From the NCBI GenBank assembly GCA_905178155.1, contig CAJINV010000007.1, positions 4,366,258 to 4,430,257 on the forward strand: DNA of 64,000 nt, in the 5' to 3' direction. The notes under the pieces were generated by a model that saw nothing but the letters and a program-made list of their open reading frames with translations, was not told where the DNA came from and did not search any database. Every line of letters starts with the position of its first letter. Position 1 is the stretch's first letter. This document shows, in pieces, positions 12,418-62,600 of this stretch. This DNA is from Amoebophrya sp. A120 (taxonomy: Eukaryota; Protista; Dinoflagellata). A program made the position numbers and the translations under genes.

Positions 12418-14918
12418 TTATTTCAGCGTGATAGGCAATCGCGGCGGCAATCGAAAAGTTGGCACGTGCCCTCGGTTTTGCGCGTCGACGTAAGAAAGCT
12501 CTTGTCCCGGAGACGGTGGTGGACCGCCACCCGCTGCGCCTGGCGTTTTGCCATAGATCGCATCGTCTTCCTGTTCCTGCGTTGGCTTGTCGGGGGAAAA
12601 AGTAGTGAGTCTCTAATGACTCGGGAGGTGCATACAGGAAGCACTCCGAGGTGGAGGTCTCAGAATCGCATGAAAAATTGAAATACACTCTGCAGCTCCT
12701 CCTCGTCCATGCGTACAACTGTCTTTCTATTTCATCAGATCAAATTTATTATGTAGCAAAATCGCAGAAAAATGAAAGGTCAACTGGCCAGTTTGCCATG
12801 CCCGTTTTTCATGACTACGAGCGGCCTTCCTGTAAGTACAGCGACACATACTAGATCCTCCTACTTATTTCACATCCCATATGGCCACCCGAACCTGAGT
12901 TCCGTGTCCAAACTCGGGTCCTCCGGCGGTTTGTAGAAGTCGAAAGGCGGTCTCGTCATGGCATCCGGCGGCACCCGATTTTTCCGCGACGCGTGCTTCG
13001 GAACACCGCCCACCCGGGGCTCGTTTTTGCATTCCATACCGCATGTGTAAAAGTTCTTTTTCGACCCGTCGCCGCAGCAGAGGATCCGTCCGTTTTCGTC
13101 GCGGGGAACGCCTTTCATGCTAAAGCTAATTTGCGGCACGGCAAACGAGGTTATGGGATCGTTTCAACGATTAAAATTAAAAAAATTAATTTTTATTTAT
13201 TCAAGAGGTCATACAAAATGAAAATCATCAGAGTGCGACGTGGAAACTGCCGTCGTCGCGGGCCTCCGAGGTGAACGTCTCCGGATTGTGTTTTGTTTAT
13301 GGTAATGAAATAGCTAGACACGTCCCAACTTCAGCTAGTTAAAATGGTATGTAGTTGAACAAGGTTTAAGAATGCAAAGGAAGCAGGAAGCTTGGCTCCG
13401 TCTTTGCGGCCCACAAGCTGGGCGTCTGCGTGGTCCCTCGCTCTCCGGCTCGTCTGGGGCCCCGTCACGTAGCAGCGACGCTATGCTGGTTTCGACCGGT
13501 GGAGTTTATGGGGCAATGTGATGGCTTTCGAATACATCCCAAGAGGAAGCTGGTGCGGCAAAGCCTGAAAATGTGTGGCGTTGTAGTATTGAGATCTCGC
13601 ACCTCAACGGACGGAGCAACTTTCGTGGTTTTGGTCATCAGTTTCAGAGTGGGAGTTCCTGAGTTCCTTTTAGAGCTGGAGGATCGCGATTAATTAGACG
13701 CCCAGAGACGTCCAAAAAGACGTCTATTTTCCGCGATATGGAAATGGATTGACTAAGTGGGAATAGCCAAAGTTAATGACGTCCCTGGGGACGTCTCTGG
13801 GAGACGTCCCGCAAGCTCATTTTTGGCATCAAAATGAGGCGCGTCAAAAGTTGACGCTTTTCCTTACGAAAAAGCTACTCTTTAGGATGCTTTTGCCCAA
13901 CATATCCGCAGCGTCGCCTCCTCCACCGTTCTGCTCGCGATACTCCTGCAGGGCCTCACTGGGCTCCGTGTCGGTTGGCGTCGCCTTCTCCGGGCCCAAG
14001 ATATCGGCCAGCAGCTCTTCTCTGCGCGCGTGGATCCCCCCCATGTATTTCCGGCGTCCGGAGGGGGCGCGGAGGAGGGCCCGGATCGCCCTGGCGACGT
14101 TCTCCATACCAAGGCGCTTGGTATTAGAACTGCTCCTGCCGCGATGACAGACTCCAGCTTCCATATCATTTCAACTAGCTTAAGTTGGGACGTGTCTAGT
14201 TATTTCATTACCATGAACAAAACACAAGCCGGAGATGTTCACCTGGGAGGCCCGCGACGGCGGCAGTTCCCGCATCACCTTCTGATGATTTTCATTTTAT
14301 ATAACCCCTTGAATTGCAAAAAATTAATTTTTTTTATTTTAATCGTTGAAACGATCCCATAGAGGTGAAGGCTCTGTGGGTTTTGTTTCGGAAAATCATG
14401 CTGTTTGTGTTTTCTGCAGAAATAGGACGAAGGTGGTCGTGTCTGGCGCGGCTCTCGCAGGCACCGCTGCTGTTCGGGGTAACGGCCGCGACCTCTTGTT
14501 GGGACAGCAATCCGCCGTCGGTATTGATAGAAAAAAGTTCCTGCAACCTGAGCAATGGCATCTTCGTCTGACTGCGATTTGTATTTTTCGTTTTATTGCT
14601 TGCAACTCCGAAAGGATTTTGCCGATTTCTCTTTCTGGTGGTTCTATCTTGCTAAAATGAAATCGGTAGTCCAACTAGATGTGGTGATCGACGACCACAA
14701 GGCCCTTCCTCGCTGCGGATATGGAGTACTGATGTGTACGAAATGCGATGATGAATGTTCTTGGAAGAGGAAGACGAGGGGGGACAATGCTTAATAACCG
14801 TTCGCCAGATCGAAATGAAGCACTGCAGTGTTAAACACATCTGCGCTTTGGCTTTTCCCTCACAAAAACTGCGCAGCCGCGACCGCGACTCGTCGGCAGG
14901 GCCGGTTTTTGCGGCCAA
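12418..14918 (-). CDS. Hypothetical protein, 5' end unresolved; one GT-AG intron (14652-14798) and two TIR-element introns
   Basis: Removing 14652-14798, 13152-14361 plus one TSD, and 12588-12881 plus one TSD gives one continuous 280-codon frame: ...ISIWRT|QDRTT...KTHRAFT|SFAVPQ...LRFGWP|TQEQEDDAIY...PITLK*. Confidence 0.65.
12588..12881. mobile_element. Degenerate TIR introner-like element (294 bp) acting as a non-canonical intron
   Basis: Flanks tggct (12583-87) and tggcc (12882-86); ends TGT...ATA; imperfect TIR (gggaaaaagtagtgagtctcta vs reverse complement gtgaaataagtaggaggatcta); excision restores frame. Confidence 0.7.
13152..14361. mobile_element. 1210-bp DNA transposon with ~200-bp TIRs and 5-bp TSD, acting as a non-canonical intron
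   Basis: TIRs 13152-13351 and 14162-14361 (TATGGGATCGTTTCAACGATTAAAA...); TSD gaggt at 13147-51 and 14362-66; excision restores frame. Confidence 0.93.
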
Positions 14919-22000: not shown

Positions 22001-25000
22001 CAAATTTAAAAATGTCGATTTACCGACACCGTTGGGCCCGACGATCGCGATGCGGCTCGTCGTGTCACATCCGAAATCCAGCTCATCCAGCAAATAGGGC
22101 TGCTCCCCGTCGTAGGAAAAGCACACGTCGGACACGTTCAAGCCGCCAATACCGGAATCTTGCCCGAGGCCGAAGAAGTTGAATTTGACAATGTAGTCCT
22201 TGATCTTTTCGTGGATGTCGTTGATACTGTCCAGATTGAACTTTTTCTTCACCTGCTCCTCCGCTTTGTCCTTCGCCATGCCGGATCGTTTCAGCATCTT
22301 AAACTCGTCCTGCATCTTCTTCAACTCTCTGGCATGCTCCAGCTTCTTCTGCCCAAGCATCTTCTTAAACCCGGAGTATCCCCCACGGTAGTAGAAGAGC
22401 TGCTGCTGGTCCAAATGGATCACGTCGGTGCAAATCGCGTCGAGGAAGTCGGCGTCGTGGGAAACGCAAATGACTGTGTGGGGGTATTCCTCGGAAAGGT
22501 AGTTGTCGAGCCAGAGGACCGCGTCGAGATCCAAGTGGTTGGTCGGTTCATCGAGAAGGAGAAGTTTGGGCTGCAGGAAAAGGGCTTTCGCGAGGGAAAT
22601 GCGCATACGCCAACCACCGGAGAAGGTTTCGACCTGAGCGAGATTTTCGATGGTTGAAGATGGTGTTCTGAGCGTGATCTGATGCTGACTTTCTTGAAAA
22701 AACAAAAATGCTAAATGAATATGAATGCTTTTGTTCGAACAGGTAATGGCAGATATTCCGCAATCATGGCCAATGAATCATCACCAATAAAAGCACTTCC
22801 GCTATTTGGTATACCGTCTGCGTCTGCATTTTCTTGGTGAACCCGAGGCCGGTTAAAATTTTCCTCACGGTCGACTCCAACGCGTTCGCGTTCCGCGCGT
22901 CCAGCTCGGCGGAGACTTCTTCCAACCGTTGCCTAGTTTTTTCCATCTTATCCTGTGCAAAAGTATCGCACTCGTATAAATGCAAGTCTTGCATTACAAA
23001 TCTTTTTCATAAGGCAAATCCGCATTACAAATTTTATTTCTCATGCTGAGCCAATTTGTAATGCATTTATACGAGTACGATACTTTTGCAGTTCATACAT
23101 CTCCACCGCGTCCAATTTGCTGTCAGCATCGTCGGCCGATTCCAACCTCTCCATCAACGCCTTCTCCTCGTCTAACAGTTCCACGCACTTCACGTCCGAA
23201 GCCATCACCTCCTCGACGACGTTTTTGTTGCTCGCCTTCGCCTCCTGTTCCACCAGCAAGATGTCCCAGTCCAGCGGCACGGGCAGTTCCCGCTTCGCGA
23301 TGTGCCGTAGCAGCGTCGTCTTACCCATACCGTTGGGCCCGAGAAAGCCGTACCGGTGTCCCTGCACGACTTTGAAGTTTGCGTTTTTGAACAGCCAGTT
23401 TCCGGCGGCGGCGAGGGAGAAGCCCTCACACACCGCGGAGTCGCCGGAGGGCGGGTGGATGACCTGCCCGCCGGGTACGACGATAGAGAAAGCTTTCAAA
23501 TCACCAGTAGCGGCATCGTCGTCCGGGTTGTGATACCTGATAGATTGTGGGGGGGAGGGGATCATTTGCGCTGCGAAAGAGCTTGGTTTCGTATGTATGA
23601 GGCGTAGGAAAGCACAAGCAACACCTACAAACACGGTGCTACGGCTACCATCAAAAAAAAGCAGTGAAATAAAGAATCAATACTTTGTCTCCGCCGTGTG
23701 TCTTTCCAACATTTTCTTCTCCTTCGCCGTGAGTTTTTCCCCATTCGCTTGTCGCTGTTTCAGATCTTCGACCTTCTCGTCCAAAGTCTTGTCGTTTCTC
23801 GCATCGACCACCAGCCCGACGTTGACCGCACTGGATTCCATATCAGCGTTCTCCTGTGCCTCCGTCGCCGCGAAGGACTTCGCGTGGAAATCCGGTTGGA
23901 AAAAAAGGAGTGATTTGGACTCCTCGAGGGTGGTTTCAAATTCGATCTCTTGCTCTTCGGGTTTCAAGATTTTTTTCTGTTTTATCGTCCCGTAGTACCC
24001 GGCGCTGGTTTCGACACCCCGTTCCCCGGTGTTATCATTTAAACTCGTCCACTTCTTCACCGCGGGGTCGACGTTTGCCGTTGGGGCCATCGTGAGAAAG
24101 AAAACCGTGGTTGGCCTGGCGCAAGTGAAGGTCAGTTTCTTCGCTTTCCCCGAGCAACGGAGAAAACCGAAACCGGTCGCGGGCGTGAACTCCCCGAGGG
24201 AAAGAAACTCCTCCGCATTTTTCGTGCCCGCAGCGACACCGGCGCGAACCAAGCCGGACCCGACATTACGGACGGACGGTTGGAGCTTTGGGTCGGCCTG
24301 AAATGGAGAAATCGGAATGATGGTGGAAGGTTTTTTTCCGAAAATAGGTTTCTTTCACTACGGTATACGGCTGCTACTAGGAACTCATGGAACGTAACGC
24401 AAGATGTAGATCCATCGTGCGTGAGAAAACGTGTTTTTATTTCTGGTGAAATTTGCAATTACACAATGAGTATCAGAATCATCAGCTATCTGTATACATC
24501 TGTCGCCAGTGTCTTGAACGTTCCCGTCGCGAGCAGATCGTGGACCACGCGCCCTTCCATCATGTTTCCAATTTTGTCGGAGACCAATGAGTCCCCCTTC
24601 AGGTCCAGCTCTTCCAAACTTCTGTCTTTCTCCCCTCCGGCGTCGTCCAACCCGGCGAACATGTCCTTTGCCTTCTCCGTTTCCTGCTTCTTTTTCTCCT
24701 TTTCCGCGTTTTTCGTTTTCTGTTCCTGCTCTTTTTTCCTCAAGAGCTCCTGCACGATAGACGTGTTGCCCGACGCATCGTCGTCGTTCATCTGGATCTT
24801 TTTCGCCGCCGCCTGCTTGTTCGCGGTCTGGTCCTTATTTCGCTTGTCCAGCGCTTTGTCCTTGTCCTGTTTCAGGTAGTTATCCGCGTTGGTCAGGTCG
24901 GTTTTCTTGATATCCCCGACGGAATCCCACATCGTCATCTCCTCCTCGTCCGAATCGCCGCGGCGCTTTGGCCGAACTTTTTTCTCCTTCTTCTCTGCGC

Positions 25001-29252: not shown

Positions 29253-30226
29253 AGCGAAGAACTGATTTATTATTTATCGCATATTATAATATCTGCAGCT
29301 TCAATTCATCCGGACCCGACAAATAGATTGCAATAGCGACACCCTGGCTGCCTCAGGGGTGCCGTGGCAGGAATGTCGGAAAATGTTAAAAGTAAGTACT
29401 AGTGTAGAGCACCTACTTCTACGCTCGGATAAATAATAATCAATGTACACATTGTAAATGATCTACTCACTTTGAAAATAAGGATGATAATTGCACAGCT
29501 TTGGGTCCTGCATCAGTCACAAAAATCCGGAAAAATCTCCTTCGACCACAATCACGTGAATTGGTGCACAGGAGTTTTTGCTGCACCCATGGAGGCCTCC
29601 CGGGCGGAGGTGGAAAAGCTAAAGCACGATACTACGAGGATTTTTTGCACGAACGGGACGTCTTGCGATCGAGAAGGAATGAACGATGACCGATGATTGA
29701 TAAAATCTTTATGCATAGGCACACGCACACAGGTTACAAAAACGACTTCCTTGGTTATGGTACATCAACAGATAATGTTGATGCAGTAGCTCATATGATA
29801 ACCGACGGCGAATGTTTTGTCGTTGCTTTTCGTACGCCGCTGATAAGACCGATCTTGATCTCCATGGTGATGGTCACATAGATAAAATTTCTACGACCGA
29901 TAAATTCTACACTCTGATTCTTTTTCATCGTTACCGATGCGCTTTCGAAAAACTACGTGGCCAAAGCCAACGAATTCGAACATTACATCCACCAACTGAA
30001 GATATTCATCAGACTGTACATCATAAATCACTCTTGTGCGTGCTCTTCGTACATTTTTGTGCGTGTAGACATCAAAGACTCAAAAAATGTTATTGCCGGA
30101 GCACATGCAGTCATTTACGAAGCGCTATTTCCCTCGACATATCGAGGTTGCAACTTCGATGGAATGAGTATGACATTTACCTGGCATGATGACTAGAATG
30201 CTTTTCGAGTGTGTGGGTGTGCAAAC

Positions 30227-33200: not shown

Positions 33201-34717
33201 TCACTGTCCTCGTCCAGGGAGCAAGAACCTGTGAGCATCGTCCTCCCTGCTCCACACACGCCCGCGGCGGCAGCATCAGGCTCAGCTCTCGCAGCCAGGT
33301 CGTCAGGAGCCAGCGGTAGATCATCCGTAGTCGCAGCTTTCGTCGTGGCGGTGTTTATGGAGAAAAAAAAGTTTGTCACAGTCACTAACTTGCAGGCTTT
33401 CGCTTTGCGTTACAAATTTTCTCAGCATCACAGACTTTTCATGTATTGCAGAAACACTAGGGAAATCCCTACCCTAATAAAGTTTGGCTGTGAAGACGCA
33501 TTTTTACGCATGGCAAACAATTTTGTATATGCAAAAATGCGCATGAGTGATCTTGACGAACATTTTTCTTTGATAGTGTTGTGACTCGCTGTAGTGGCAG
33601 ATTTCTCCCGATGCAAATTTTTCCAAGGCTTGAACTTGGAGCGGGTCTTGTGTCTCCCCCTGGTCGTGGGTGTGTCTGTTACGGTTTCTAGTCCTGGTCG
33701 TGGCGTTCGTGTGCCAACAGTGGGCTGCTGATGCTGCCGCGGAACCTGCATGCGGCTATGTGTGGCCCCGACGAGGGCAGGCCGCTGTACTGGCGAGCCC
33801 GAAGACTCATCCCCTTCATCTTCGCCTCTGGACAAGTAGGATGAAAGCGATTCATCCGGCAGAGTTGACGATCGTCGTGTCTTTTTCTTTCGTGCTCGTG
33901 CTCCTCTTCGTGACTGGAGATGAAGGCCCCCATCGTCTCGGAACAGCTGGTCAAGGAAGGGAAGCACTTCATCCTCTTTTTCCATTCCAGGTCTACTTCG
34001 ATGGTTCACGTCGTGATCATCGCCGCCGTCGTCCTCGAGCACAGTAGAAACTGGCTTTTCATCACGTGGCAGCAACGTGAAAAATGTCGCTTGTGTATTC
34101 GACCTACAACTTTCTGTGTTCTTCTTTTGCGTAGAAGCGGTCGCCGCCTTCTGTTGATCATATCCCCGCATTATCGCCGGAACCGGTCGCGGTGAGCCCG
34201 CCTCGTCCTGGTCTTTAGAGCTATTTCCATGCGAAACTACCTTTGATGATGTTGACCCGCTACTACCGCAGGCCTCGTTGTCGATTTTCTTCTGAGTGCA
34301 GCCTCCTGCTCCTCCTCGTCCTTCACCATTCGCATGAAGATTCGCGTTTCCGTTTCCCGCCACACCACGTGTCGAAAGCAGTTTCTTCTTCGGCCGTGAA
34401 GGAGAATCGAATCCAGCAAGTCTAGCGGTGCTGGACGAGGACGACGAAAACGACGAAAACGTGGCTGACGCAGGTGCTGCAGACCTACCCTGCGATGTCT
34501 TCCTGGCTTCTGTTCGGACACGGACCAACGACTGCCGTGGTGAAAAAGGCGACGACGACGACGACGACGTTGATGAGGTGGACTCGCGACTACAGGTGCT
34601 TGTGCTTGATCCGGCGCTCGATTCACCACTACCTCTGTCACGACTCCGAGATTGGTGGCTCCTACTGTCGTGAATCAGCTGCCTCGAGGAGCGCTTCGGT
34701 GTTGATCGCGTCAACAT
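30227..34717 (-). CDS. Hypothetical protein (~1421 aa) with low-complexity N-terminus and globular-looking C-terminal half
   Basis: The 429-aa and 1052-aa ORFs join in frame (SHNT|ATTKAA) after removing element 33356-33575 and one TSD. Confidence 0.78.
33356..33575. mobile_element. TIR introner-like element (220 bp), non-canonical intron
   Basis: TSD gtgtt (33351-55, 33576-80); TATGGAGAAAAAAAAGTTTGTCA vs reverse complement TATCAAAGAAAAATGTTCGTCA; contains an in-frame stop. Confidence 0.87.
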
Positions 34718-42084: not shown

Positions 42085-45000
42085 CTATCGCAAAAGTTGT
42101 TTCTTCGTTTCCTGTCGCAGTTTTATCGCCTCTGCGTGTTCCCGCACGATCTCCTCTTCGACAGAGTTCAGGGTCAGAAACCGCCACACGTGAATCTCCT
42201 TCGCCTTCTGCCCGTACCGCCGAATCCGCCCGATCGCCTGTAACTCGAAGGAAATGGCTTTATCGACCGTTGTCGCGTTCATGGGGTGGACGAGGAGGCA
42301 GTGGTGGCAGACTTCCGCTAGATTCGTGCCTGCAGCGGAAGTCTCAAGGGAAAGCAGAAGGATGTTGGTGGACTTCGGACCTTTAATATTGCCCGTAGTG
42401 GAGGACTTCGCTAGTCCTGCTGCGGATTTACTAGTAGTATCCTTGCTGTCTGGAGGTCGTGCAGTGGCAGTACTCATGTTCTTGAACTCCGACAGTTTCT
42501 TGTTTTGCGCGATTGCGTCCCCGGTCAAGGTTCCGTAATTGAACCCGTATTTTTCCAAGCAGCTCCCAATTTTGGTCATCAAATTCTTCCACTGACAAAA
42601 CAAAATCACCTTCGCGCCCGGTTCCGTCTCCTCAATGTGCAGTAGAACCTGGCAAATAGCCTGGATTTTCGACCCGAACTCCGCGTGCTTTTCCGGATCC
42701 CGGATCTTTTCCGAAATCAAATCGTTGTCGTACTTCTGCACTTGGTAGGAACTGGTAGTAGGTTGCTGAAGATCCGCAGAAGTGGCACCTGCTACTGCAG
42801 CACCAGAAGCAGAGGATGAGTTCGCAGCCGCAAAAGCGCCTCCGTTTTGATGTTCACTTGTCGGCTTGCCTGGTTTCGATTTCATTTTCGCCTTCATCTG
42901 CTCTAATTGCAAGTTTTCGTCGCGCAGCTGGTCGATCTTCTGCTGCTCGTTCTTCGCTTCGATCTTCACGCCCGCAGACTTCATTTCCAGGGCCAGCGAG
43001 TAGATGTCTTTGGATCCGCGGAGGGGTTTGCGGCAAAGGGCGCACTGGTTGTGCTCGGCCCGCATCTGTCGGTGCACACACTCGACGCAGAAAACCTTAA
43101 TTTTTGTGTTGGAAAGATTTTTCGTTGTACTTAGACGCGCTGCATGGCATCGTTGTAGCAGTGCACGCATATTTTTTGTTGAACACTTTTTCCATTTCCG
43201 TCCACTAGAACTACTTCTACCCAAGACAAACCAAAGAAAAAAGCAATACATGTCCGCAGCTGGTTATCGACAGGCTGCTCACCGGGAGCTGGTCTTCCAA
43301 GCAAAGCACGCACTTTCGACCTGATAGGTTTTTGGACTCCGACTCGTCGATTTGTTTTTTTCATAGATAGTAATACTCCCACAAAAATCAGTTTTGTCAA
43401 CACGCAGGATGTGACGAATCCATCTAAATTTGAGCTATCGCTAGTCGTTAGCGATGTTAGTAAGTAGCTCGGAGAAGTTGTAGCAAACAAGATGTATCAA
43501 ATCCATACCATCATCATCGTCGTCCTCCGGTTTCTCTTGCTGCTCCCCTCCGTCTTTGTTTCCGTAAATCTGCAGCGTTTTCCTGAAAAAGGCAAACACG
43601 TTCACAACCTCCCTCAACGCGCTGAACTGCGAGAGAAACTCGCTGATCGTTTTCTCCTTCAGCCGCTCCAGTTGCACCCCTAGCTCCTGCTGCTTTTTCC
43701 TCCCTTTCGCATTGGCATCGACTTCGCCCTGCTTTAGCGGTGCCGGGGGCTGGTAGCGGAGAAAGGAAACGGCGTTTTCTGCTTTGTTGTTCTCTGCTTT
43801 TGCAGAAGACACGGCTTTTGATGATGATGATGAGCTAGAATTATTTGTTGAAAGAGGTATTTTGTTCATCGTCAACTGTTGCAGCTCTTCGTATTGCTTG
43901 TTCTCTTTCAGGTCGAATTCTTTCAAAACCTTCTTCTTCTCCTTTTCCGGAAGACTTTCGAAAAATTTCGGGTGAAATTTCGCCCTGGAAACCTTCTCGT
44001 GCTGTTCCCGCTCATGGTCCCACTTTTGCTGTATTTTCTGGATTTTCTTTAAATTATCAGCTGTTGGAAAGAAGCTGGACAACACGTTTTGCCAATCGTA
44101 GCTATTGTTCTTGTTCCCGTCCGCCCACTTGATGTTCATGGATGAACTCGACTCCATGTTGAACAGTTTCTGCACCGCTTCCCTCGTCAACCCGCTTTTC
44201 TCCTCGTTGTTGATCATTGCAAGAAACGAATAAGCCTGAAACGGGAAGTCCGCAAACGTCTTCGCCAACCTCCGCTTCTTCTCGGCATCCTGCTGCTTTT
44301 TCCGCTTCATTTCCTCGAGATCGACGTCCTTGCTGTTCACCCGTTTCGGAAATTTCTGCGAAGCCGTAAGTGGAGCAGCTCTGGTGCTGTTCGCACTCGC
44401 GACATAGCTTTTGTCTTTCTTTCTCAATCTTGGATTTTTAATTCCGTCAAGGTCGTCGAAGTCAACATCAAGATCCCCGGCGTCATTTAAAACCGCATCT
44501 AATTCGTTTATTGCCAGCTCGTCCACAATCGGCGGGCACACGAGGTCTAGGCCCAGTTCCTGCTGTTCCGCGTTAGAAGTTTTGCCCTCGGGCGAGGAAG
44601 CTGCGCCAGCTCCTTCTTTGTGAGAGACAGAGGATTTAGTCTGGTTGTTTCTTGCATTCGCAGAAGAGCTACTCGCAACGGCCCCTTGTGCACCACCAGC
44701 ATTGGAAATTTTCTTCATTGCCGCCACAAAAGTTGCAGAACCTCCCTTCTTGTCTGACAAATTCTTCATCTTCGCCTGCTGCTGCCGCACGTAAGACGCG
44801 GCGGTTTGCGACACGGGGTCTAGAACCTTCGAAAAGCCCTTTCTCCTCTCCTCCGGGTCGCTGTTCGAAATCGCCTTTAAAACGGCGAGTCTCCTACAAA
44901 CTCCCTTGATCTGCGTGACAGCCTGTTTCACCGCGGACAGCTTTCGCTCGAAAATCCGGCTGCACTCCGCTCCGGTCGAGCTCCCCTCGCCCCCTAGAGT

Positions 45001-48000
45001 GTGGTGGCTGCAAAGCTGAAGCAGCTTTGCCCGCTTCTCCAAGGCCGTGTCAGAGGCTGAAGATAAAGCATTGTTTCTGGAGCTACCGCTCAGGGGTGCA
45101 CCAAATGGATCAGCAGGTGGTCCTCGTGCGGTACCAGTGAACGTCGAGCTTCCAGCAGCTCCACCTGGCTCCTCCGTAGAGCTGGTACTCGCACTTTGGT
45201 AGTTCATCGCGTTCGCTTGCGCGAGGTAAATTGCGCGCTCCTCTGCGGTGTGGGAGACCGCGATCCAGTGTTCTTTTGTCACGATTTTGTCCGCGTCGGT
45301 CACGGCGGAATTTTGGCGGACGAACCTTTGCAGGAATTTCTCGCAGTTTTCCCTAAAAACTTTCGACCGGTCCCACGGGTGACACTCCTGCAGGTATTTC
45401 AGCCGCTGCTTCGCAAACGCGTTTCGGCTGGCCGTGAAGTAGCAGTCCCGCACATTCGCGCAAAACCCCTTACTGACGTTCTGCACGTGGTGGCTGTAAG
45501 CGCCAACGGTGTTTTGGTTTTCCGTGAAGCCCTCCTGCAGTCGCGCGCCGTAGACCCCGAAGGGCTCAATCTGGAACGTCGCGGGTTCGCTGCCGTTGTT
45601 CCCCCCGCGGCCTCCTCCGTGCCTGTTGTTCCGCCGCCGGGCTTCGCCGTACAGAAAGCTGTCTTCGCTTGGCGTGTAGTCCGACATGGTCAAATCATCG
45701 GAAAACCCTTCGTCGTCCTCATCCCCGTCCCGGTCAAAGTCGGTGTCGAGCTCCGATCGCATGTCGTTGTGATTCACGTTGCTGGTCGTGTGCTCCGACT
45801 GGAAGGAACTGTCAGGCGAGGATTGCATCAGAACATCTTCTTGCACTTCTTCGCCCAGCAGAAGGTCTCCGGGGAGTTCCGGCTGGTGAATATAGTCATC
45901 ATCGTCCTCCTCCGGGGGGAGCAAAGTTTCCACTGCACCGGCGTTCGCAGTGGTGGTGTGTAGAGCTCTAGCTGTACTCGCAGACGATCCACCGGCTTGT
46001 GCTTGTTGATTATTTGCAGTGCCTCCACTTCTAGCCGCGTTGTTCGCATTGTTGGCAATCAGCCCAGCCTGGCGCAGCACCGCGTTGCTTGTCGCCCCCC
46101 GGATTGGCGCCGCTGAGCCCGCACGTGCTCGATTTATGCCACTGTGGTCACCGTTCGCCCTGCCGTGGTTCAGCTGATTGAGCAATTTCCCATTCCCGCC
46201 AGCAATGAAGAGATCCGCGGTGTGGTTGTGCGTGCCGCAGTGCTGACAGATAAACGCCAGCTTCGTACTGGGTTCGTGCGACTGCGGAAGAACCAAAGAA
46301 TTATTTTCCGCAAACTTCACACTCTTCACCGTGAGAGATCTTCCATCTGGCACGTTCCCGGAGACGTAGGGCTCTAGACAGCAGTTGCACTTCCACTCGG
46401 TCATCGGCAACAAATCGTACTCATACTGCCTATGATCGTTGGATCCTCTCCGCCCGCCGTCCGGTTTCGCCGACTTCTGACCGCGTTTGAAGTTAAAGTT
46501 TGGGCAACTCACCCCAAGCGGATCCATCACTGCGGACAAGCCAGAGCGGGGGTCTTTGAGGTCGGCTCTCATCGCTAAGCGGTGGAGCCGGTCCGCGTAC
46601 TCGGCTTCCACTTGGGACACGCCACAGAGGTCGACACCAAATAGCGACGCGGTGGCGGCGACATTCCGAACCGAGTCGACTTGCGGCGTGCCGGTTAGCC
46701 CGAATTTGCTGAAAGCCTTCAGGTTCAGAAGCGAGGAGACCTGCTTGTCTTCAAACGCCTCCAGCTCGTGGAACTCGTCGAAAACAATCCTGCGGAAGTA
46801 AAATTGCTCCAGTAACGGGAACAGCAGTAGCCGGTATTTGTCGTTTTTTATCGAAGAAGATGAAGAACTAGAACTACTTCCGCCGGCAGAGGAAGATTTC
46901 TTTGGATACACACTGTCCATGATAGTCCGGCTCTTCGACGCCGGTGGCACAACAGAATTTCCGAACAACTGACTGGCCTGCGACGCGGCTGCAGACGGCT
47001 TTGACCGCCCGCGCTTCATTACCCCCGGCTTAGACTTGCTGGCGTCGGCGTCGACAAGGATGTTGGTGCTGTCAACATCCATCATGTCGCTACCTGTCGT
47101 GCCACTACCTCGTCCAGGTACGGAAGAGGTTTTTGCGTTGGTCTTTTGATCATTCTGTTCTTTGTCTTCCTCCGCAACCTCATCCAAATCCACCAAAACG
47201 TCCTCCTTTACCTTTTCCTTCAGCGCCCAGGGTTTAAACCTGACCGGGAGTTTTGAATGCGTGCTACTCATGAAGACTCGCGTGTTCTCCCGTAGTTTCG
47301 TAATGTACTCGTGTTGGTGGAGTTGGAAGTCCGTGTCGTCTTTTTTTTCCTCCTTTTTCTTCTTCTTCGGTTTAGGTCTACGAATACCAAAGACATCGAC
47401 CTCGTAGTCCATATCATCATCCGAAGGCGATCCGGTTAAGTCGTCGTCTTCAAAGTCGTCGTTGTAGTACGGCCGATATCCCAGTGAGTTGTGGAATCGG
47501 CCCAACCTCTGATCCGCCTTTTTTCGCCGGGCTTGCTGCTCTTTTTCCAGCTTTTTCTGCTCTTTTTCCTTCTCCTTTTTTTTCTTCTCCTCGAGTTTTT
47601 CCTCTTTTAATTTGTCGTCGCCTAATCCGGACAGTTCTTCGAAACGCGACTGGTGGACGGAGCTGTATAAAACCCGGTACGTCACGAGAATTACGTCGTA
47701 CTGCTGCAGATCGTACACTGTCCGGATCTTCAAGGGGGAGATGTTCTTGCAAACCAGGATATGCAATACAAATTTCCCGTACAACATGTACAAGATGCAT
47801 CACAAATTTCACCAATTTGGAGCGTCAGATTTGTCATGCTTAACTAGGATCGAAGCCAAGTTTTGTCATACAGAGACCGCATTTGTACGAGTACGTCTAC
47901 GTGTACGGGAAATTTACTGTGGATACAGGATCTTCAGCTTGTTGTTCGGCAGGAATTTTTCGATCTCGGTGCTCCACTGGTCGATGAGGTGGGAGGGGAC

Positions 48001-51000
48001 GAGAATCAAGGTGGTCTTCGGGGCTGGGAAAAGACCGGCGGATTCGTGAGTAGAAGTCGAAGGAGAGGAACGATTTGTACTAGAACTGCTGTTCGTCCAC
48101 AGCATCTCTTCCTCTGAAGCCGAGGAGAAAGGACCACCGTGCGCGGAGGAACTGCTGGAGCTCGACACAAAGCCTCGTCCTGATGCGAGATTTTGTTCAC
48201 TCGCGTTTGATGTTCCAGCGGCTGCACCGTCTTCCCTTAGCAAGATCTTGCACATTTTCGCGAAGGTCAGCTGCTTTTTCTCTTCTTTGCCTCCTCGCTT
48301 AGTTTCGTTAGCATCCTGCTGCTCAACGGTTGACTTATCTCCGGCTGCGCTACTCGCGCTCGCCGAACTGCTGCGTTCCTGAGTAGGAAGCTCGTCTTGC
48401 TCAGGAGCCGCGGTTTTCATTCCTTGTTTCTCTTTCTTCATTGCCTGCTGCTTCGTGCCTCCTTTGTTGTCCTTCTTCATAACATTCGTGCTAGAAGAGC
48501 CAGCTGCTTCTGCTGCAACTGCCTTTGCTGCAGCTTTCTTGCCCTTCTTGCTAGTGTCCTGCTTCTCGTCCTCGTCGACTTTTCGCTTCTTCAAAGGCGG
48601 CCTGCTTGCATTTTTCGTTTTCACATTGTCGTCCGCCAGCAGGTCGTCTTCTTCGTCTTCGATTTCATCCTGGTCCTCCGCTTCTGAGTTTTCTGCCGAG
48701 GAGTTGGAGAATTGTTGTTGGTTCAGCTTCAGATCCCGCTCGCTCTCCAACTGAAACCGGTCTTCCTTCGACAACTTTCGTTCCATCACTGTAGTTGAAG
48801 AAGCTCCTCCTGCGTAATTGTCTTCTGTGTCTCTGTTCGCCAAACGCAGCCAATTTTTGATCAATCCCAAGTCCATCGCCTTGGAACTTGCCAACAAGCC
48901 AATACACGTCGCGGTCTTTCCGAAGCCAATTTTGTCCGCCAGAATACCGCCGCGATTGTTGTAATTCGCCGTCATGTTGAATTCCAAAGACCACGTGGCC
49001 TGCGACAAAGGGCAATTTTTGATCGCCTTGTACTCCGCAACACGGCGGTGAAAGGAGTCGCTCGGATCGTGTCTGTGCGAGCCTTCCAGTCTTCCGCTGT
49101 ACGGCTGGTGTCCCTGGAATCCTCTTTTCGCAGGAAGATACCGCTTGTACTCCACTTGCAAGTAGTCGCTGTCGTGCTCCCGTTTCTGCATCCAATAGAG
49201 GGAGCGGAGTTGCTCCGGGCGGAGCGGGTGGTGCCTCGACCAACCGGGGGGCATTTCGCCGGTTGGGTCGTTGTCGTTATTCATGATTTCAAACCGCTGG
49301 AAGTCCTTGGTCTGACTTTGACTGTGGAGGTCCTTCTCACTGTTATTTTTCTTGTTCTTTTTCTTCATCGCATTAGTTCTGGTGTTCAGAGGACCTCCGG
49401 TCAAGCCGAGCAGGCCCTTGTTGTCTTTTGACGATGATTTCATGGCTTTACTTGATGCGCTCGCGCCTCCTGCCCCCGTCGTTCCGGCGAGAAGTTGGTC
49501 CTGCTTCTTTTTCATCTCCAAGATCGTTTTCCGGTCGATCACATAGTCCCTGCTCGGCGGCCGGCAGCTGTTCCAAATCGCGACGCCAGCCTCCAGCTTC
49601 GCGGGGGCAAACCGGATTCTTTCGAGAAAAAAGCGCTGAAAGATCCGGCCGAATTCCACTCTAATTTGCCACTGCACGTGCTGCTCGCGAAGAAAGTTGC
49701 ACTCCTTCAAGAAGTTAACTTTTTGTGCGTTCACAACGTCCAGCACCAATTTTAACGAAGTGCCGGTAAGGTCCTGATCACCAGTGTCGGCCTTCTCCTT
49801 ATTTGCAGAAGCTCCGGCTGTTCCCGCTTTGCCTCCAGTAGTCGCAACTTTTTTCATCGCTGCTTTCGCTTTTGGTGCGGCTTTTGCTTTCGCTTTGCTC
49901 TTCGCGGCCGGTCCAGTTTTTGCTTTTGCAGCAGCTCCAGATGGTTTGCCATTTTCTGGCTTAGATGCAGTCTGCGTTTTGACAAAACGCAGTACATCGT
50001 CCTCCAGAGCGGCCTTCTCTTTTTCCTTCGCCAGCCCGTTACAACCGGCGAGCATCCGCTTGTAGACGCGATCAATGGCGCTGGCTGCTTCCTGGGTGTT
50101 TGTGACATCCACAGCACCCCCGCCAAGGCCCGCCGGGTTGTCCTTTTGCTTCTGCAGGGTGGTTAGTGTCGGTACTAACAAATGTCGTTCCGTATTGATC
50201 ACCTTAATGTCGATCGGAACGACGCCCAGTAACGAATTGTGCGCCTGCTCCGTGTTGTTCTCAATGCTTCCCTTCCCATGGGGTTGGTAACTTGACAAGA
50301 AAGAAAAATTGCTGGCGGAGTGATCGGACTTGACGAACCGCGGCACGCAGTCGTCCAGCCGGTTGTCGCGGATCAACAGGCGGTCCATCAATTCCAGACG
50401 ATTCATCGCCGGGTTAGCCCCCTCGTGGGCTCCGAGACCGTCTTTTCCCAGGCCAAACACCGGGTTGAATTTGGTTTTGTCCAACGAGAGCGTCGCGTCC
50501 GGGTTTTCTACCGCGACCGCCATTTTCTGCAGAAAGTCGTCCCGGAGAAAGTTGACTTCGTCGTTGATCCCCTCATTCAAGTGCATGCAGTGGATGTCGG
50601 AGTAGAACCGAAGGTGCAGCCACTGGAACCGTATGCAATGCAAATTTCCCGCACATGTACAAAATGCATGACAAATTTCGCTAACTTGCAGTGTCCAACT
50701 TGTCATGCTAGACTAGGACTGAAGGCAAATTTTGTCATGCAGAGACTGCATTTGTACGTGTACGGGAAATTTACTGTGGATAAACCGGGTCACCGGCCGG
50801 TCCTCGTTTTGCGACTTCCACCCCGTTATCAAATGCAAAAATGTCTGGGTCTGGAACAAAGAAACTTGTCATGCTAAATCTCAATCACGTACGAAGTCTG
50901 TGTTGCATGATTACCAAAAGCTGTCCACTTTTGACCTCATCGAGAGGCAGTTTCTCATGCAGGATAGGCATGATATAACTCTCACGGAGTCTGTCATGCT

Positions 51001-54000
51001 ATGCCCTACATACCAGACCGCTTGGGTCATGGAAAACCTGCATGACAAGTCTGGCAGTTTTCAAAGACCCAGACATTTTTACATTTGATACCCGTGCTCA
51101 AGTGCGCACAGTGCGCCTGTTCCCACTGCGCCTTGCGCTGCGCTTCCGCCCGTTGCCGATGGTGGAAATTCATGAGCCCGATCTTCCGCTTGTCCATGCT
51201 GAAGATGCTCGGCGGCAAAGGGGCATTCTCCTGTTCCAGACGCGACGGGCCAATCAGCAGCTTCTGGCCTTGGGTCGCGAACACGTCGGTCAAGTCCGTC
51301 TTGTCCTGACCAACGAGGAAGCAGGGGTTCTGTTCCAGGGCGAGAGCGGTCAAATTAGTCGGGATCGAGAAGTCTTGCTGGTGGTCGGGTTGATGTTCTG
51401 ACTTCTGATTTTCGTTGTCGCCTAAATCGCGCTTCGATTTTCTTCCATTTTTTTCTGCTGTTTTATTATTTCCGCCGACGTCCTTCTCGTGGTCCTTCTC
51501 CATCTCTTTGGTGGATTTCATGCTCTTTGCTCGACCTCCTGCAGCTGTGGAAGTTCCGATTGACGGTGCGTTTTTCAACAGTAATTCCGTGATATCCACC
51601 GGAAACCGCTGCTGAAAGGTCGCAGAAGATTGCGAAGTAGAACTCGTCTCTTGTAAGAACGAAGGCCTGATGTTGTCCAAGGAGGACGTCGCCTTGTGCT
51701 TCTTCATCGTCTCTCCCATTACGTTTTTGAAAGCGTTGGCAAAGAAGGGATTCTTGCTCACCACGGTATCGTCAAAAGCACTGCTGCAATTGTTTGCTTT
51801 ACCGACTACCTGAGAGGCGGCGTCACCCGCGGCTTCACCGCCTGCAAGAGAATCAGTCGCGGCTCTCTTCGTCGCGCCCGAGCACAATTCCTGCAACGGC
51901 ATCAGACTCGGTGTGCAGTTCGCCACCGAATCCGGCCGGATTACCCGCGCGTGTGTTTTGTTCATGTCGGTTTTGTGTTTCGTGTTTGAGGGCTGCGGAG
52001 TGCCGGACGCCATTAAATCGACCACAACGAAATCGGAGCCGGTTGCTGGTGTCTCCTTCACATACAACTCCATCTTGCTAGAAGTTGAAGTCGCATCTTC
52101 TACGCCACCATCTTCCTTTTCCTTATCTTCCTTCCCGTCCGTGATCGTTAACTGACTAACACCTTGTCCTGCTCCTGCTTTTTTTCCCACCGCGCTCCCT
52201 CGGATCGGTAAAGTTTTGTGCACCTGGTTGTAGGTGGCGGCGAATAGATCCTTGACCGCCTTGCAGCAGTCGTTGGTCGCCCCGGGGAATTTGAAAAAGC
52301 TGGGCAGATCGATGACAAAGTTCGCGAGGTTTTGCAGCATGTCATTCGTCATCTCCACGTTCAGCGGTGAGCCCTGGTCCCAGTCCGACCCGGACACGTT
52401 GCCGTAATTCAGAGATTTGTAAAGATTTTCCACGTCGGTCAGGAAGGAGAGCTCCTTGTGAAAGTGCGAAGTGGGGTGCTGTCGAGGTGCAACTATGGTG
52501 CTGTCAAGCGATTTCAACATCTGGAACTTCTGATCCGTGGTCCTTGCGTGATTCATCGCGTTGCTATTTATTTCCTCAAAATCCACATCCATGTCGTTAC
52601 TTTCACCTGCAGGACCGGTTGCTTGTTCCCCGGTAGTCGCCATCGGTTCTTGGCCTCTGGGATGAGCGTCAAATCCTGGAATCTGCGGGGCCAAATGTCC
52701 GCTCGCGGGAAGATTTTTCGTCTGCGACGCCAGCAAAATTGGTTCCAACAACTCACAGAACTTCAACAAGTCGACGTTGTCTTTCGTCCCGAAATCGTCC
52801 GTCATCAGCATTATCAACATCCCGACCATCGCACGAAGCACTTTCTGCCTCACTTCAAAAACCTCTCGATTTTGAGGTAGCGAGAAGATCTTGTCGCGCA
52901 GCAAATTGTAGTCGTGGAGAGGAAGGGGAGGTGGCAGGGAAGCAGCTGCAGCAGCAGTGGCGGATGACCGGAAAGTTGTACCATACACATCTAGATCTTC
53001 TACTTCTGCGTGGTCAACATCACTACCGTTGGTGACGTCATTCTGCTCCGACGCACGCCACGACGCTAGGATCTGCTCGTAGTTTTCCACAACCTCCTCC
53101 ACAATACCGTGCTCCACCAGTCTGGCAATGCAGTGGTCCAGCGCGAACCAGACCTTGCAGAAGACCATTTTGCTACTGAGCGGCTTGTCCGCCACCCCAA
53201 AATTTGCCGGGTTGCTGTCCCCCTCCAGAATGGTGGCCGCCGTGTCCTTCATAAGGTCCTCCATCTTGAACTCCCTGTCTTTATTGGAATACTGCAAGCT
53301 GTGCTGCCACCGCGGAGAGGGCATGGTGTGGTGTAACCTCACGAAGTCGCCGGTGCCGAGGAAGTTCTCGTTGATGTAGCAGTTGTCCAGTTTCACCGCT
53401 TTGCTCATCTTCGGCGCATTGAAAGGCGTGTGGTGGTTATGGTGTTTCGACGGCGCAGCCTTTGAAGATGCTCCTGAGGTGTTTTTGCTACTACTTTTTT
53501 GCTCAGCACCATCTTTCTTGCCGTCCGCTGCAAAGTTCGGCTTGTTCAGAATGTGCGAGCTGGTAGTCAGAATGCTCTTCTCTGTCGTTTTCAACATGCT
53601 GGCCATATCCCGGCGGGTTAGCGCGGGGAACTTCACGATGTCGTCCGGCTGCGCCAGCCAGGAGCTCACTGCCTCGTAGTAAACGACCTCAGAGGACGCG
53701 AAATAACTGGATTCATGCGGGTAAGCGTGGATAGCGACCTCTCTAGTAGTTGCAGTTGTGCTGCCCGCCGGCGCTGTTGCAGAAGAAGTTAATATGTTGT
53801 CTCCAAAAGTTGCCCTGTTTTCCTCGTCCTCGTCGCGCACGACCACCTGTTCAATGTCAGAGATCAAGCAGGTAGTTTTATTGTTGTGACCAGAAGGCGT
53901 TATCTGCTGCTTGAACAGCTTCGAACTTTTCCCGTTTTTACTGCCGTTTCTGCTCTTGTCTTTCTTCTCGCTTTCCGCCCGCTTGTGCTTTTTCGCGGGC

Positions 54001-57000
54001 GAGTTCTGCTTCTTGTTTATGTTTTTGCCCTGCATATTATTTGGCACGCGCTTCATCGCCACAACGCTTTGCCAATTGGCCACTCGCTTGTACACATGCT
54101 TTTGGCCCGCCCGGACGCCGGCCAGAAAGCTGAGAGGCCGGGGTTTGCTACTCTCCTCTTCCTCGTTATCGGTATCCCGATCCTCCGCATCCTCGTCCTC
54201 AATATCGGAGTTTTCGGACCGTTTCTCACCAACAGCATTATGCTCCTTGTCCTTGCCAGCACCGCGATGAAGCAGCTTTCCAGTTTGGAAAGGATGATCC
54301 GACGATTTGATGTTCTGCCTCTTTTCATACTCAACTTCCATTTCCCTATCCCGTTGCCTTCTTTTCTTCTCTTCCGCTTCCCTCTCCCTCCGGTGCAGGT
54401 TGTTGACCAAGTCAAATTCCCTCAGATCAGCGTGCGGGCAGTGTGTGCGGAACAGAAAAGGATCAACGCCCGTCTGGTTGCAATCCACGTCGTTAGTGGG
54501 CTCGCATTGCTGAATCTGCATGACCGCCTGCTTCAAAAGGGATTTGTTCTTCTGGAGGTGCATTTTTCTGCTGCTCCTACTAGCACCAGTAGTGGGTTCT
54601 TGTCCACCATCACTTTGGCAGGAATTCTGCTCCCGTTCTTGCAACATGCGCTCGAGCACGTTCAGCATCGGAGCGGTGTAGATGTCCGAGGCTGCTGTTG
54701 ACGGTGGTCGTCGCTCGCTCGCCCGATTCTTCTCGTTCTTCAGAGAGCATTCGTAGACGAACCGCAACTGCTCGATGTATTGCCTTGTTGAAGGACTCAA
54801 ATCTCGCACGGATTCGTAGCGGGCGGGAGTTATTCCTTTATTTTCCTGCAGCATATTGTTCAATTTTGCAGGAGCCTTGCTGCTAGAAGACAAAGAGGAA
54901 CCGACAGCTTGGTTCGTGCTGGTGTTTATAGTTCCGCACTGTTCATCCGCAAATCCGAACTTCTCTAGCTTCTGCTCCATCTCCGACAAAGCTTCCCTTA
55001 GTTTCCCCTTCACGTCCCCAGCACCGCCGTCGGTAGTGGTCCCGCGAAAAAGCATTCGGTTCAATTTGATCCAGCCCATATGCGGATCGACTTGGTCCTT
55101 ACTGAGAATGTCGGCGAATTTATTACCACTCTTGTTCTCCGCTTTGGACTTCATTTCTTTCTTACTCTTATCCCCCTGCTCAGCCTCGTTTTGCGCCGCT
55201 AACTCCTTCTCCCTTTTCTCCAAATCTTCTAGCAGGTCCAACAGCCGCTTGTTCGGTCCACATTGCTCCAGCGGTATCTCGCCATCCAGATAGCTACCCG
55301 CTCCTCCTGCTACCTCCTCCTCAGCACAGTCGTCCCTCCGTTCACAGATCGGGACGCGGTGCACGGACAGCGCAAACCGCCACATAATGTCGCTGATAAT
55401 GCTGTCCGGGCTATTTCCCACTTCCTCCTCTTCTTTCCGAGAGTCGTAACTTTTCATAGCTGCGTCCGCCCGTAAATTCACGTTTTTCTGATTGTCTAAC
55501 TGGAGAAACGTCCGCAGGGGGTTCTTCCACTTTCCGAGGAGCATCCAGTTTTTCAACGCGTTTTCAATGCTCTCGCGGAGGAACTGCTGATTCCGCCGGT
55601 CGAACGACTGCCGGCTTTTGTAGAAAGAACTGTCTTGGTTGTACTTGGTTGTGGAAAATTTCGTGCCGAGTGTGACAACCCGGGTCACGCACTTCAAGAA
55701 TGCGTTTACTTCCTCCAAAAGAAGCTCGGGAAAGCGAAAAAAGGTTCTTGTTCTACTTGCCGCGTCGAGGTGCTGCTGTGTTGATGAAGACAGAGCATTT
55801 TTATGCCCGCCGGTAGTTGTTGAACAAGACACTAAACCACGACGTTGTTCCGACGAAGACGAAGATGAAGATCCTGACAAGAAGTTCTTGTTGTCACCAT
55901 CAACTTTGTCGAAGTCAAACACCTTGAGCGTATCCCGGTAGCTGAGCGGGCCGCTTTTGTACTCGTAGTCCAGTCTGTAGTTCGTGTTGTGCTTGTGCGT
56001 CCGCCTCTCGTCCTGCGTGTCGGGCTGTTCGGTGAACCTGGACCGCGTTAAGCCGGACAGTTTTTCGAACCGCATGTCTTCATACACCAGCTGCTCCCCG
56101 TATCCACAGTAAATTTCCCGTACACGTACAAATGCGGTCTCTGCATGACAAAACTTGCCTTCAATCCTAGTCCAGCATGACAAGTTGGACTCTGCAAGGT
56201 AGCGAAATTTGTCATGCATTTTGTACATGTACAGGAAATTTACATTGCATACCCCGTACTCGGGCGGCAATTCCTCCTCCCGGGTCGCTTCGGAATGATG
56301 GATGTGTCAGGTTTGAAATCGTCAAAGTTGAAATAGTTTGAGTTTGTCATGCATAAAACAGATACCAGTCGGAAGCCCACTTATCAAGCGGCGCATGACA
56401 AATTTTCCGAGCACCGGAATCCAATTTGTCATGCTGTTTGGGCACAGAAGATTGCTTTTGTCATGCGAGTTTAGTAGCTCTATTTCAAACCCTAAATAGG
56501 CTCATAATCTGCCTCATTTGCCATCCCGGCAAGACAGGCACTTCATGCCTTGCACTTTATGCATGAGAAATCATTTCAACTTTGTCGATTTCAAACCTGA
56601 CGCTTCCATAAGAATCCTCGTCCGAGTAGAAATCGTCCTCGTCAGAAATAAAGCTGTCGTCGTCATAGTGGCGGTCTCGGTTGTTCCCCCTCCGATGGTG
56701 CTGTGCGTAGTTCCGGTTGCCGGCCGGCCCGACCTGCTCGCCCATCGCCGCAAACCGCATCGCAAGCTCCGCGTGGCTGGTCGGCGGCCGCAGGATAGAT
56801 TCATTTATGGTTCCCACGACGTCGCTGTTGTCCTCGTTTTCATCAACTACACCTTGTAAGATAGCTTCAACATCATCCAGCACCTGATTGTCACCGACAG
56901 TTTGTCCAGGAAAGTTTAAGTTATTCGTGCTATTGTTTTCTTCATCTCGTTCTCGCCGTCCTGTGATGTTGAGTCCGTTGTTCTGGTCTCCTCCAAGTCC

Positions 57001-58453
57001 AACCTCTTGATGTTGTTGAATTATTCCGGAAGAGAAAGATGCTGGTGGAAGCCTCTCCACGAGCAGGTCCCGCACCACTTTTCCGTACCGGTCCTCCAAT
57101 CTTTCGCCCGTGAAGTCCCTGTGGTACCCCACCAGCGTCTATCAAATGTAAAAATGTCTGGGCCTGGAGGAGTCATGCTGTTTTTGCATGACACAGAAGG
57201 TCTGGCATGGAAGCTCTGGCATCACAGGTTTCGAGAAGCTTCCGTCATGCCGAATCCGCATCACAAATCCCCCATTCTGGTGACAGAAATTGGGCAGCTT
57301 TTGCTACCTATGCATGAGAGATCTTTCTGTGTTCGGAAATGCGCATCACAAGTTTGTATTCTTCCAGACCCAGACATTTTTGCAGTCCATAGCGTCCGAA
57401 TGGACACGAGCGACCGGTTGCGCGCGTCGGCCTCTTTGTCGCGCTCTTTCATGTTGTGGTAGTCGTGCGGGGAGGTCGTGTTCGTCATCGCCGTGAAGTC
57501 CTGCCGGCTCCCCATAACCTCGTAGTTTTTCGTGCCAAAATAGTACCCGGGCTTCGCACCCAGAAACTTGTTGGAGGGAATACAAAAGGGAAGCGAGGAC
57601 GAGGATGAAGACCCACCAGCACTACCTCCGTGCGTTCTACTGTACTGTGCGAAGAGCTCGTCCACCGTTTTCGGCTCGGTGCTTTTTGTGGTTGCGAGCA
57701 GGTCCTTGGACTCCTTCAGGACCAGGGCTTCGATCTGGAGGTTTGGGAAATGGAAAATAAATCATGTACAGATATCAAGCGACAGTTGCGATATCATATA
57801 TCACACAAGGAACTTACTGTTAGACTCAAAGCAAACTACTGGGTCCTGGCACTGACAGTGATGAAAAAACTAAAAATTAATTTTTGAAAAGCAAGAAAGC
57901 CTTTATATGTTGATACGGTTTTTCGAAGCTCCTCCCGCTTTGCAGCGTCCATAATACTATTTGGCTCTGCGGTTGTTTGAAGCGCGGAAGACGAGGATGA
58001 GGATGCGGAGGCTCCTGTAGGAGGTGCACCAATTTTGATGTTTGTAGCCAAACTTCTATCCCCGCCCCCGGCTACAACATCTAGCAACTGGGCCGCAACC
58101 TTTGCCGCGGCTTCCTCTGCGAGTTTCATCTCCTGGGTCGTTTTACTATTTGGTAGAACTGCGTTGTGGTAGTTTGCGAACGCATTAGCTTGATGCATCG
58201 CAGCAGAGCTACTACTCGCAGAACCGCCTTGCTGCGCGCCATTTCTGGTGCCGGCACCCCCTCCGGGGGTATTATTTGCGTTGACGTTCATGGTTGCCAC
58301 TAAATTGGCGAACCGCTCCGGATTCGACAAATATTTGTCGCAAGCCACGTCGACGGACCGGAATTTCTTGATCAACGCCTTCGCGAGCGCCTCATCGACG
58401 GACAGGATTTCGCAGACCGTCCGGACCTGTTCCGAAAATGTCGACCCAGCCAT
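42085..58453 (-). CDS. Giant SNF2-family helicase/ATPase with RING finger (Rad5/Rad16-like group), ~4838 aa
   Basis: Motif I GGILADKIGFGKT; Ia TLILVPSHLIDQW; II RIVFDEFHE; III GLTGTP; RING CVLC...CGHVFCVEC...CALCR; IV KVILFCQW; V AAGTNL; VI QAIGRIRRYGQ. Three GT-AG introns (57735-57916, 43321-43508, 43096-43249) and six TIR introns give 14517 nt = 4839 codons. Confidence 0.9.
47760..47925. mobile_element. Family A TIR introner-like element (166 bp)
   Basis: TSD cagga (47755-59, 47926-30); TATGCAAT...GTGGATA; excision gives KLKIL|VCKNISP. Confidence 0.93.
50632..50782. mobile_element. Family A TIR introner-like element (151 bp)
   Basis: TSD aaccg (50627-31, 50783-87); excision gives RPVTR|FQWLH. 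Confidence 0.93.
50827..51090. mobile_element. Family B TIR introner-like element (264 bp)
   Basis: TSD cccgt (50822-26, 51091-95); TIR TATCAAATG(C/T)AAAAATGTCTGGGTCT; excision gives HLSTG|WKSQ. Confidence 0.93.
56101..56251. mobile_element. Family A TIR introner-like element (151 bp), inverted relative to the other two copies
   Basis: TSD ccccg (56096-100, 56252-56); its reverse complement matches 50632-50782 with ~9 substitutions by manual count; excision gives PEYG|EQLV. Confidence 0.93.
56297..56610. mobile_element. TIR introner-like element (314 bp), family C
   Basis: Flanks ggaat and agaat (one mismatch); GAT...ATA ends; inverted repeat gtcaggtttgaaatcg(t/a)caaagttgaaat; excision gives DEDS|EATREEE. 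Confidence 0.88.
57140..57391. mobile_element. Family B TIR introner-like element (252 bp), inverted relative to 50827-51090
   Basis: TSD gcgtc (57135-39, 57392-96); TIR core AAAAATGTCTGGG; excision gives SIRTL|VGYHR. Confidence 0.92.
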
Positions 58454-62588: not shown

Positions 62589-62600
62589 CTTTTGTGCCTA

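Follow-up and report, generated by a model that had tools for sequence, protein, structure and literature searches.

Introner elements in a window of the Amoebophrya sp. A120 genome point to a probable fixed splice register relative to their paired ends

In the dinoflagellate Amoebophrya sp. A120, a marine parasite, Farhat et al. (2021) described 29,850 introner element copies, with inverted repeats that start with TAT followed by seven variable bases and As, and with direct repeats of 3-5 nucleotides (nt), given as 5 bp in the legend of their Fig. S19 (PMC7789003). They reported RNA-seq support for the non-canonical introns, which make up 65% of all A120 introns, and found no transposase in A120; the legend of Fig. 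3 describes splice sites that vary in position with respect to the hairpin and a border of unknown position (PMC7789003). Gozashti et al. (2025) classed most A120 introner families as terminal inverted repeat (TIR) DNA elements (PMC12130899, Dataset S2). Here we analyse a 64,000-nt stretch of this genome (contig CAJINV010000007.1, positions 4,366,258 to 4,430,257; "the window"), in which an initial annotation had marked ten inserts, E1 to E10, as non-GT-AG introns. The window inserts share with the described introner elements the organism, the TAT-start inverted repeat, the direct repeats, the non-GT-AG removal and the occurrence in repeated copies. However, whereas the border is variable or unknown in the earlier paper, ten junctions in the window allow one register: the removed piece probably always reads N-TAT...AT(A/G)-NNNN, with the cuts one base upstream of TAT and four bases downstream of ATA.

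A fixed register matters for the question of how these introns are spliced. A single code would turn the apparent chaos of splice dinucleotides into alignment ambiguity, would tell where branch points or circles should be sought and would make the mechanism testable. If true, it would be either the second stem-measured splice code after that of Euglena or a spliceosome that ignores both ends. The elements, the TAT start, the direct repeats and an integrase-like lead to the mobilising enzyme are already in print; the fixed register and nine old introns are the addition, drawn from one window. No fixed A120 register was found in the A120 rows of Dataset S2 and the passages of PMC12130899, or in the sections covered of the literature on Amoebophrya introners, splice sites and transposases (PMC11453091 included; the figures of PMC7789003 and Roy et al. 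2023 were outside this scope), and the corresponding parts of PMC7805219, PMC4455052 and PMC9860276 hold nothing bearing on these introns.

Young inserts, older introns and the place of the cut

All ten young inserts were located at the positions first proposed for them.

12588-12881, minus strand: E1 core, sense ends TAT...ACA, repeats matching at 4/5 (joint 12582->12882 in contigs X1-X3; public protein P0002)
13152-14361, minus strand: E2 core, 1210 bp, with 200-nt inverted repeats and a perfect 5-bp repeat (joint 13146->14362 in X1-X3)
22949-23097, minus strand: E3 core, in the ABC-F gene (joint 22943->23098 in X1-X4)
33356-33575, minus strand: E4 core, weak inverted repeat (sequence and a 1423-codon frame after removal only)
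47760-47925, minus strand: E5 core, in the SNF2/RING gene (X1 record 2 skips 47755-47925; P0001)
50632-50782, minus strand: E6 core (X1 record 2 coordinates; P0001)
50827-51090, minus strand: E7 core (X1 record 2 coordinates, 39-nt exon by arithmetic; P0001)
56101-56251, minus strand: E8 core, frame open if retained (public annotation P0001 only)
56297-56610, minus strand: E9 core, sense ends TAT...ATC, repeats matching at 4/5 (public annotation P0001 only)
57140-57391, minus strand: E10 core (public annotation P0001 only)

As described before, the ends read TAT...ATA in eight of the ten, with one altered end each in E1 and E9. The 5-bp direct repeat, claimed for every insert, is perfect in eight and matches at four of five positions in E1 (TGGCT/TGGCC) and E9 (GGAAT/AGAAT); within the 8-base flanks it cannot be extended to 6 bp. 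Inverted repeats are likewise general, with a weak one in E4 (score 5), and the order of TAT start, seven variable bases and A-run is present in the window elements, the A-run being weak in E2 and E9. A scan of the window that combined near-TAT/ATA ends with a 5-bp repeat and inverted repeats scoring at least 9 returned 7 candidates, compared with 0-2 per block shuffle (10 shuffles). Without the inverted repeat, N5-TAT...ATA-N5 occurs 17 times in the window and 16-28 times after shuffling, which is chance level, and therefore it is the inverted repeat that carries the signal. Scan candidates at 29710, 15722, 27374, 4613 and 38763 were dropped as unsupported; those at 15722 and 27374 lie within continuous contig pieces and that at 4613 within an exon of the P0003 gene.

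With all six registers checked, none of the ten inserts offers GT-AG or GC-AG on the gene (minus) strand, in agreement with the initial annotation, and hence the U2-type GT/GC...AG ends are not found in these elements. E2 has a GT-AG register on the plus strand only, and its small host gene has an open frame of ~240 codons on both strands; this gene is set on the minus strand by the public protein P0002 and by the neighbouring genes. Repeat families in the window are E5/E6/E8 and E7/E10. Since E6 and E8, 94% identical and in the same gene, lie in opposite orientations, as do the related E7 and E10, removal appears to be independent of orientation. Nested in E2 at 13701-13801 is a further segment of 101 bp, which has CCC...GGG ends, a 24-nt inverted repeat of its own and a 5-bp direct repeat, AGACG.

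The initial annotation missed nine further introns of the element type with decayed repeats, E0 and eight in the P0003 gene (4015-9017), three of which had first surfaced in an inverted-repeat scan of the window.

12122-12433, minus strand: E0, eleventh element, TAT...ATA, repeats matching at 2/5, 317 nt removed (loose end of X3 at 12433; P0002)
8697-9017, minus strand: i1, A-TAT...ATA-TTAA (this and the following by P0003 mapping)
8389-8664, minus strand: i2, C-TAT...ATA-AACG
8087-8332, minus strand: i3a, T-TAT...ATG-ATCT
7674-8072, minus strand: i3b, an exception, T-TAC...ATA-AACA, without terminal pairing
7238-7599, minus strand: i4, C-TAT...ATG-CTAG
6753-7140, minus strand: i5, T-TAT...ATA-CGGC
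5347-6247, minus strand: i6, T-TAT...ATA-GCGC
4015-4382, minus strand: i7, A-TAT...ATG-CCCC

In these nine introns the repeat copies match at only 16 of 45 positions, yet 26 of 27 positions are conserved in the 5' TAT and 24 of 27 in the 3' ATA. Eight of the nine pair end to end more strongly than with shuffled 3' ends (z -2.2 to -5.9), whereas the 12 canonical introns show no such excess (z -1.0 to +1.2). As the repeats have decayed while ends and pairing are kept, it is the paired ends that hold the removal signal; the direct repeat arises as a side effect of insertion and is not needed for removal. The "one rule" proposed at the outset, element plus 5-bp repeat, thus describes insertion and not removal, because removal continues in copies with decayed repeats, with cuts at constant distances from TAT and ATA. 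Within i3b, a TAT...ATA segment with repeats matching at 4/5 (7678-7866) has its 3' end in common with i3b, and the annotated i3b donor 200 bases upstream of this segment reads TTAC, which possibly reflects a nested or shifted donor.

Perfect repeats do not allow the junction to be placed, so that copies with decayed repeats were needed to locate the cut. E0 allows offsets of -1, 0 and +1 from TAT and E1 allows -4 to 0; offset -1 fits all ten informative junctions (E0, E1 and the eight introns of the P0003 gene), offset -2 fails at E0, i1 and i6, and offset 0 fails at i4, i5 and i7. These ten junctions argue for the one shared register as the probable solution. Altered terminal triplets among the 19 introns are found at the 3' end in five of six cases. 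We set aside the published dinucleotide tables, in which the nine commonest classes of Farhat Table S4 all start with NT (PMC7789003) and Gozashti family 2 has ~69% NT starts and 68% AN ends (PMC12130899), since their patterns can arise from the ambiguity of the repeats and from the preferences of aligners; they are not used as support. An A at -7, present in 19/19 non-canonical introns, was considered as a branch point but is not supported by the canonical introns, of which 5 of 12 have it.

Host genes and absence of the elements from transcripts

1523-9318, minus strand: host gene of i1-i7 (965 amino acids, aa; 8/9 introns non-canonical), P0003
12017-14561, minus strand: host gene of E0, E1 and E2 (238 aa, no Pfam family), P0002
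18807-25100, minus strand: ABC-F host gene of E3, approximate ends (contigs, frame, motifs)
42088-58453, minus strand: SNF2/RING helicase host gene of E5-E10 (4838 aa), P0001

Three of the window genes match public Amoebophrya sp. A120 proteins at 99-100%. Once each element is removed with one repeat, the frames of the four genes with young inserts are open, as had been claimed, over 245, 1671, 1423 and 4309 codons, with the reservation that E8 (156 nt with its repeat) leaves the coding frame open even when kept. The joined SNF2 protein is 100% identical to P0001 over 4300 aa, and the public A120 gene models were built from transcript alignments (PMC7789003). The host motifs reported as intact are so in both halves of the ABC-F protein; in the SNF2 protein, DEFH, TGTP, RING and motif VI are present, and a search with the pattern G[LM]GKT gave no match. 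With E8 retained (56097-56252), the SNF2 protein would be 52 residues longer, and alternative retention is possible.

The spliced contigs X1-X4 skip ordinary GT-AG introns at eight of the 11 listed joints (read as CT..AC), and the remaining three joints are E1, E2 and E3, each lost as element plus 5 bases. In record 2 of X1, E5 is skipped with 5 bases (47755-47925), and exactly 39 bases separate 51091 from 50626, as expected if E7 and E6 were each lost with one repeat. The mapping of transcripts across the junctions, proposed earlier as a check, shows element plus one repeat skipped at six of ten joints. The idea of precisely removed, non-autonomous TIR elements is supported by these six non-GT-AG junctions; no transposase was found. 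E8, E9 and E10 agree with the public annotation only, and E4 with the frame only. In the raw RNA runs, partial reads matched at 90-99% and on element ends only (31 in X9, 3 in X10), and they are silent on the junctions. About 20 of the X9 reads (same species label) match the E7 end 50823-50885 only, at 90-95%, a hint that another strain has related elements.

In the ABC-F gene, the X2 and X4 contigs carry an extra homopolymer A at window position 23899, and the window frame is open without that A. A sugar transporter (PF00083) lies at 60495-62597. The genes examined in 1523-62597 are all on the minus strand, like the unidirectional clusters reported for Amoebophrya.

Removal by the spliceosome and its alternatives

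For the life cycle of these introns, a cut-and-paste transposase acting in trans would almost certainly insert the element and duplicate 5 target bases. Element plus 5 bases is then absent from the mRNA, leaving the protein unchanged, as shown by the contigs for six young elements and E0 and by annotation for the rest. The first base and the last four bases of the removed piece N-TAT...AT(A/G)-NNNN are in all probability free and the repeat dispensable, and either orientation would work because both element ends read TAT inward. Canonical introns of the window begin with GTAT in 10 of 12 cases, and with the cut at offset -1 the TAT of the elements falls on the same positions +2 to +4. It is an even chance that TAT stands in for these positions of the usual GTAT donor of the host, and the terminal stem, rather than AG, may equally well be what positions the 3' cut. 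The GTAT match and the five of six altered triplets at the 3' end make the host spliceosome our preferred candidate: with looser requirements at +1 and at the 3' AG, and guided by the stem, it stands about an even chance of being the machinery that removes these non-autonomous DNA transposons. A120 retains all but 6 of 89 spliceosomal proteins and its U1 snRNA was not found (PMC7789003); our Rfam search returned 0 matches.

Several points weigh against this reading. G is found at +1 in none of the nine old introns and an AG end in one of nine, so that there is no drift back to GT-AG. No branch-site motif is evident in the introns, and the donor would be buried in the stem. As to the junctions, offset 0 is excluded by the public gene model P0003 and not by reads; i3b starts with TAC, has an end pairing of z +1.5 and also allows an AT-AC register. 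The contigs X1-X4 come from one study and two samples, and were labelled as RNA by guess. No listed X1 piece covers E8-E10, and the E4 junction lies outside both stretches compared with contigs. Finally, searches in the window did not identify a transposase.

The strongest alternative is a dedicated, non-spliceosomal nuclease and ligase that would measure the same fixed register from the terminal stem, as proposed for the nonconventional introns of Euglena. We regard it as a serious, if less probable, option, since the free first and last bases, the end pairing kept in old introns and the orientation independence all fit such a stem reader, and Euglena provides a tested code of the same design, 5'-N3CDG...CH'GN5-6|R (PMC12501133). 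However, TAT sits at +2 to +4 exactly as in the host GTAT donors, the mostly 3' position of the altered triplets (5/6, small numbers) is not predicted by a symmetric stem reader and no candidate enzyme was seen.

Hairpins between short direct repeats are a known setting for jumps of reverse transcriptase, and all RNA evidence used here is cDNA-based. The young elements, with strong hairpins and mostly perfect 5-base repeats, would suit such an artefact, in which the real mRNAs keep the inserts. Against it, skipping is exact even at E0, whose repeats match at 2/5, eight introns with decayed repeats follow one register, and nine of the ten young elements would, if kept, break the frame or bring stops, which makes this explanation very improbable. 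It is just as implausible that the elements are excised from DNA, in the manner of internal eliminated sequences, in some of the nuclei or at a particular life stage: their ends are transposon-like and contigs drop rare variants, but in the DNA-like run X5 (which may be the assembly source) contigs run into the elements from their flanks, many carry element copies with other flanks, no empty-site joint occurs among the 15 of 239 joints listed, and GT-AG introns are missing from the same contigs as the elements.

The mobilising enzyme and comparison with known systems

13898-14161, minus strand: coding fragment in E2, 88 codons, similar to uncharacterised AT5.2 proteins, starting at the inner edge of the inverted repeat

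The coding fragment in E2 is similar to P0004 (E 1.6e-10) and to uncharacterised proteins of 1081 and 1170 aa from Amoebophrya AT5.2. A Pfam search of five E2 frames gave no hit and the E2 frame had no usable match in the Atlas. Relatives of the fragment had no hAT hit in Pfam at E up to 10 and no PDB hit; in the Atlas they lead to clusters of FAM200-ZBED5 RNase-like (44% of members), DUF7963 and DUF659 proteins, with scores of 0.77-0.78 that lie below the trust level. The structure model of P0005 failed as a fold model (predicted local distance difference test, pLDDT, 34.9). The spacing of motifs in P0005 and P0007 may resemble that of hAT transposases. The fragment could equally be a piece of a captured gene. 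P0005 and P0007 come from AT5.2, a strain whose introns are reported to be 99.98% canonical; should they be transposases, their family would be older than the intron invasion. At the right end of E2 (14078-14361), contigs of X1-X3 match at depth 82-122 and then run into other sequence; they derive from another, apparently transcribed member of the E2 family, a candidate longer element.

The initial annotation had pointed to IS3EU, and an integrase-like transposase of the IS3EU/GingerRoot type is an unlikely mobiliser. TA..TA ends are common to both (PMC10045372, PMC6839031), the E2 ends fit TAYGG..CCRTA (PMC12730594) and family 38, one of 58 A120 rows, is listed as "Ginger" with "5-bp TSD, TA/TA Termini" (TSD, target-site duplication) and open reading frames similar to Copia/Gypsy (PMC12130899). 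On the other hand, duplications there are of 6 bp, while they are of 5 bp in 10/10 inserts here and old copies lose the core plus 5; in addition, Pfam gave no hit for the sole coding remnant, in E2, and its relatives lead weakly to hAT-associated families and not to integrases.

Taken together, we tentatively propose a hidden splice code, N-TAT...AT(A/G)-NNNN, for tens of thousands of A120 introns, which would be read from the stem with both boundary dinucleotides free. A single superfamily could thereby enter any coding site, whichever way round, and leave the protein unchanged, and its mobiliser would be an undescribed DDE transposase of ~1100 aa with a remnant in E2. Among known transposons, IS3EU/GingerRoot elements have TA..TA (TAY..RTA) termini in common with the window inserts (PMC10045372, PMC12730594), but membership fails on the defining 6-bp duplication; the 5-bp duplication is in common with hAT5 (PMC12730594).

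With regard to removal, the introns of Fritillaria borealis are also transposon-derived and non-GT-AG, and are handled by a modified U2-type spliceosome (PMC13326754; PMC11282704). They differ from those of the window in their preferred AG-AC and AG-AT ends, accompanied by duplicated U2AF subunits, whereas in the window both end dinucleotides appear free. For the nonconventional introns of Euglena, an origin from elements resembling miniature inverted-repeat transposable elements has also been proposed; complementary motifs lie at fixed distances from both cuts, with a longer free 3' tail, and the use of machinery other than the spliceosome is proposed (PMC12501133). The euglenid code is not found in the window introns: Euglena has CDG/CH'G at +4 to +6, an N5-6 tail and a purine after the cut, and the window has TAT/ATR at +2 to +4 and an N4 tail (N-TAT...ATR-N4), in an unrelated lineage. 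The Euglena system therefore works alike, and the window introns are not members of it.

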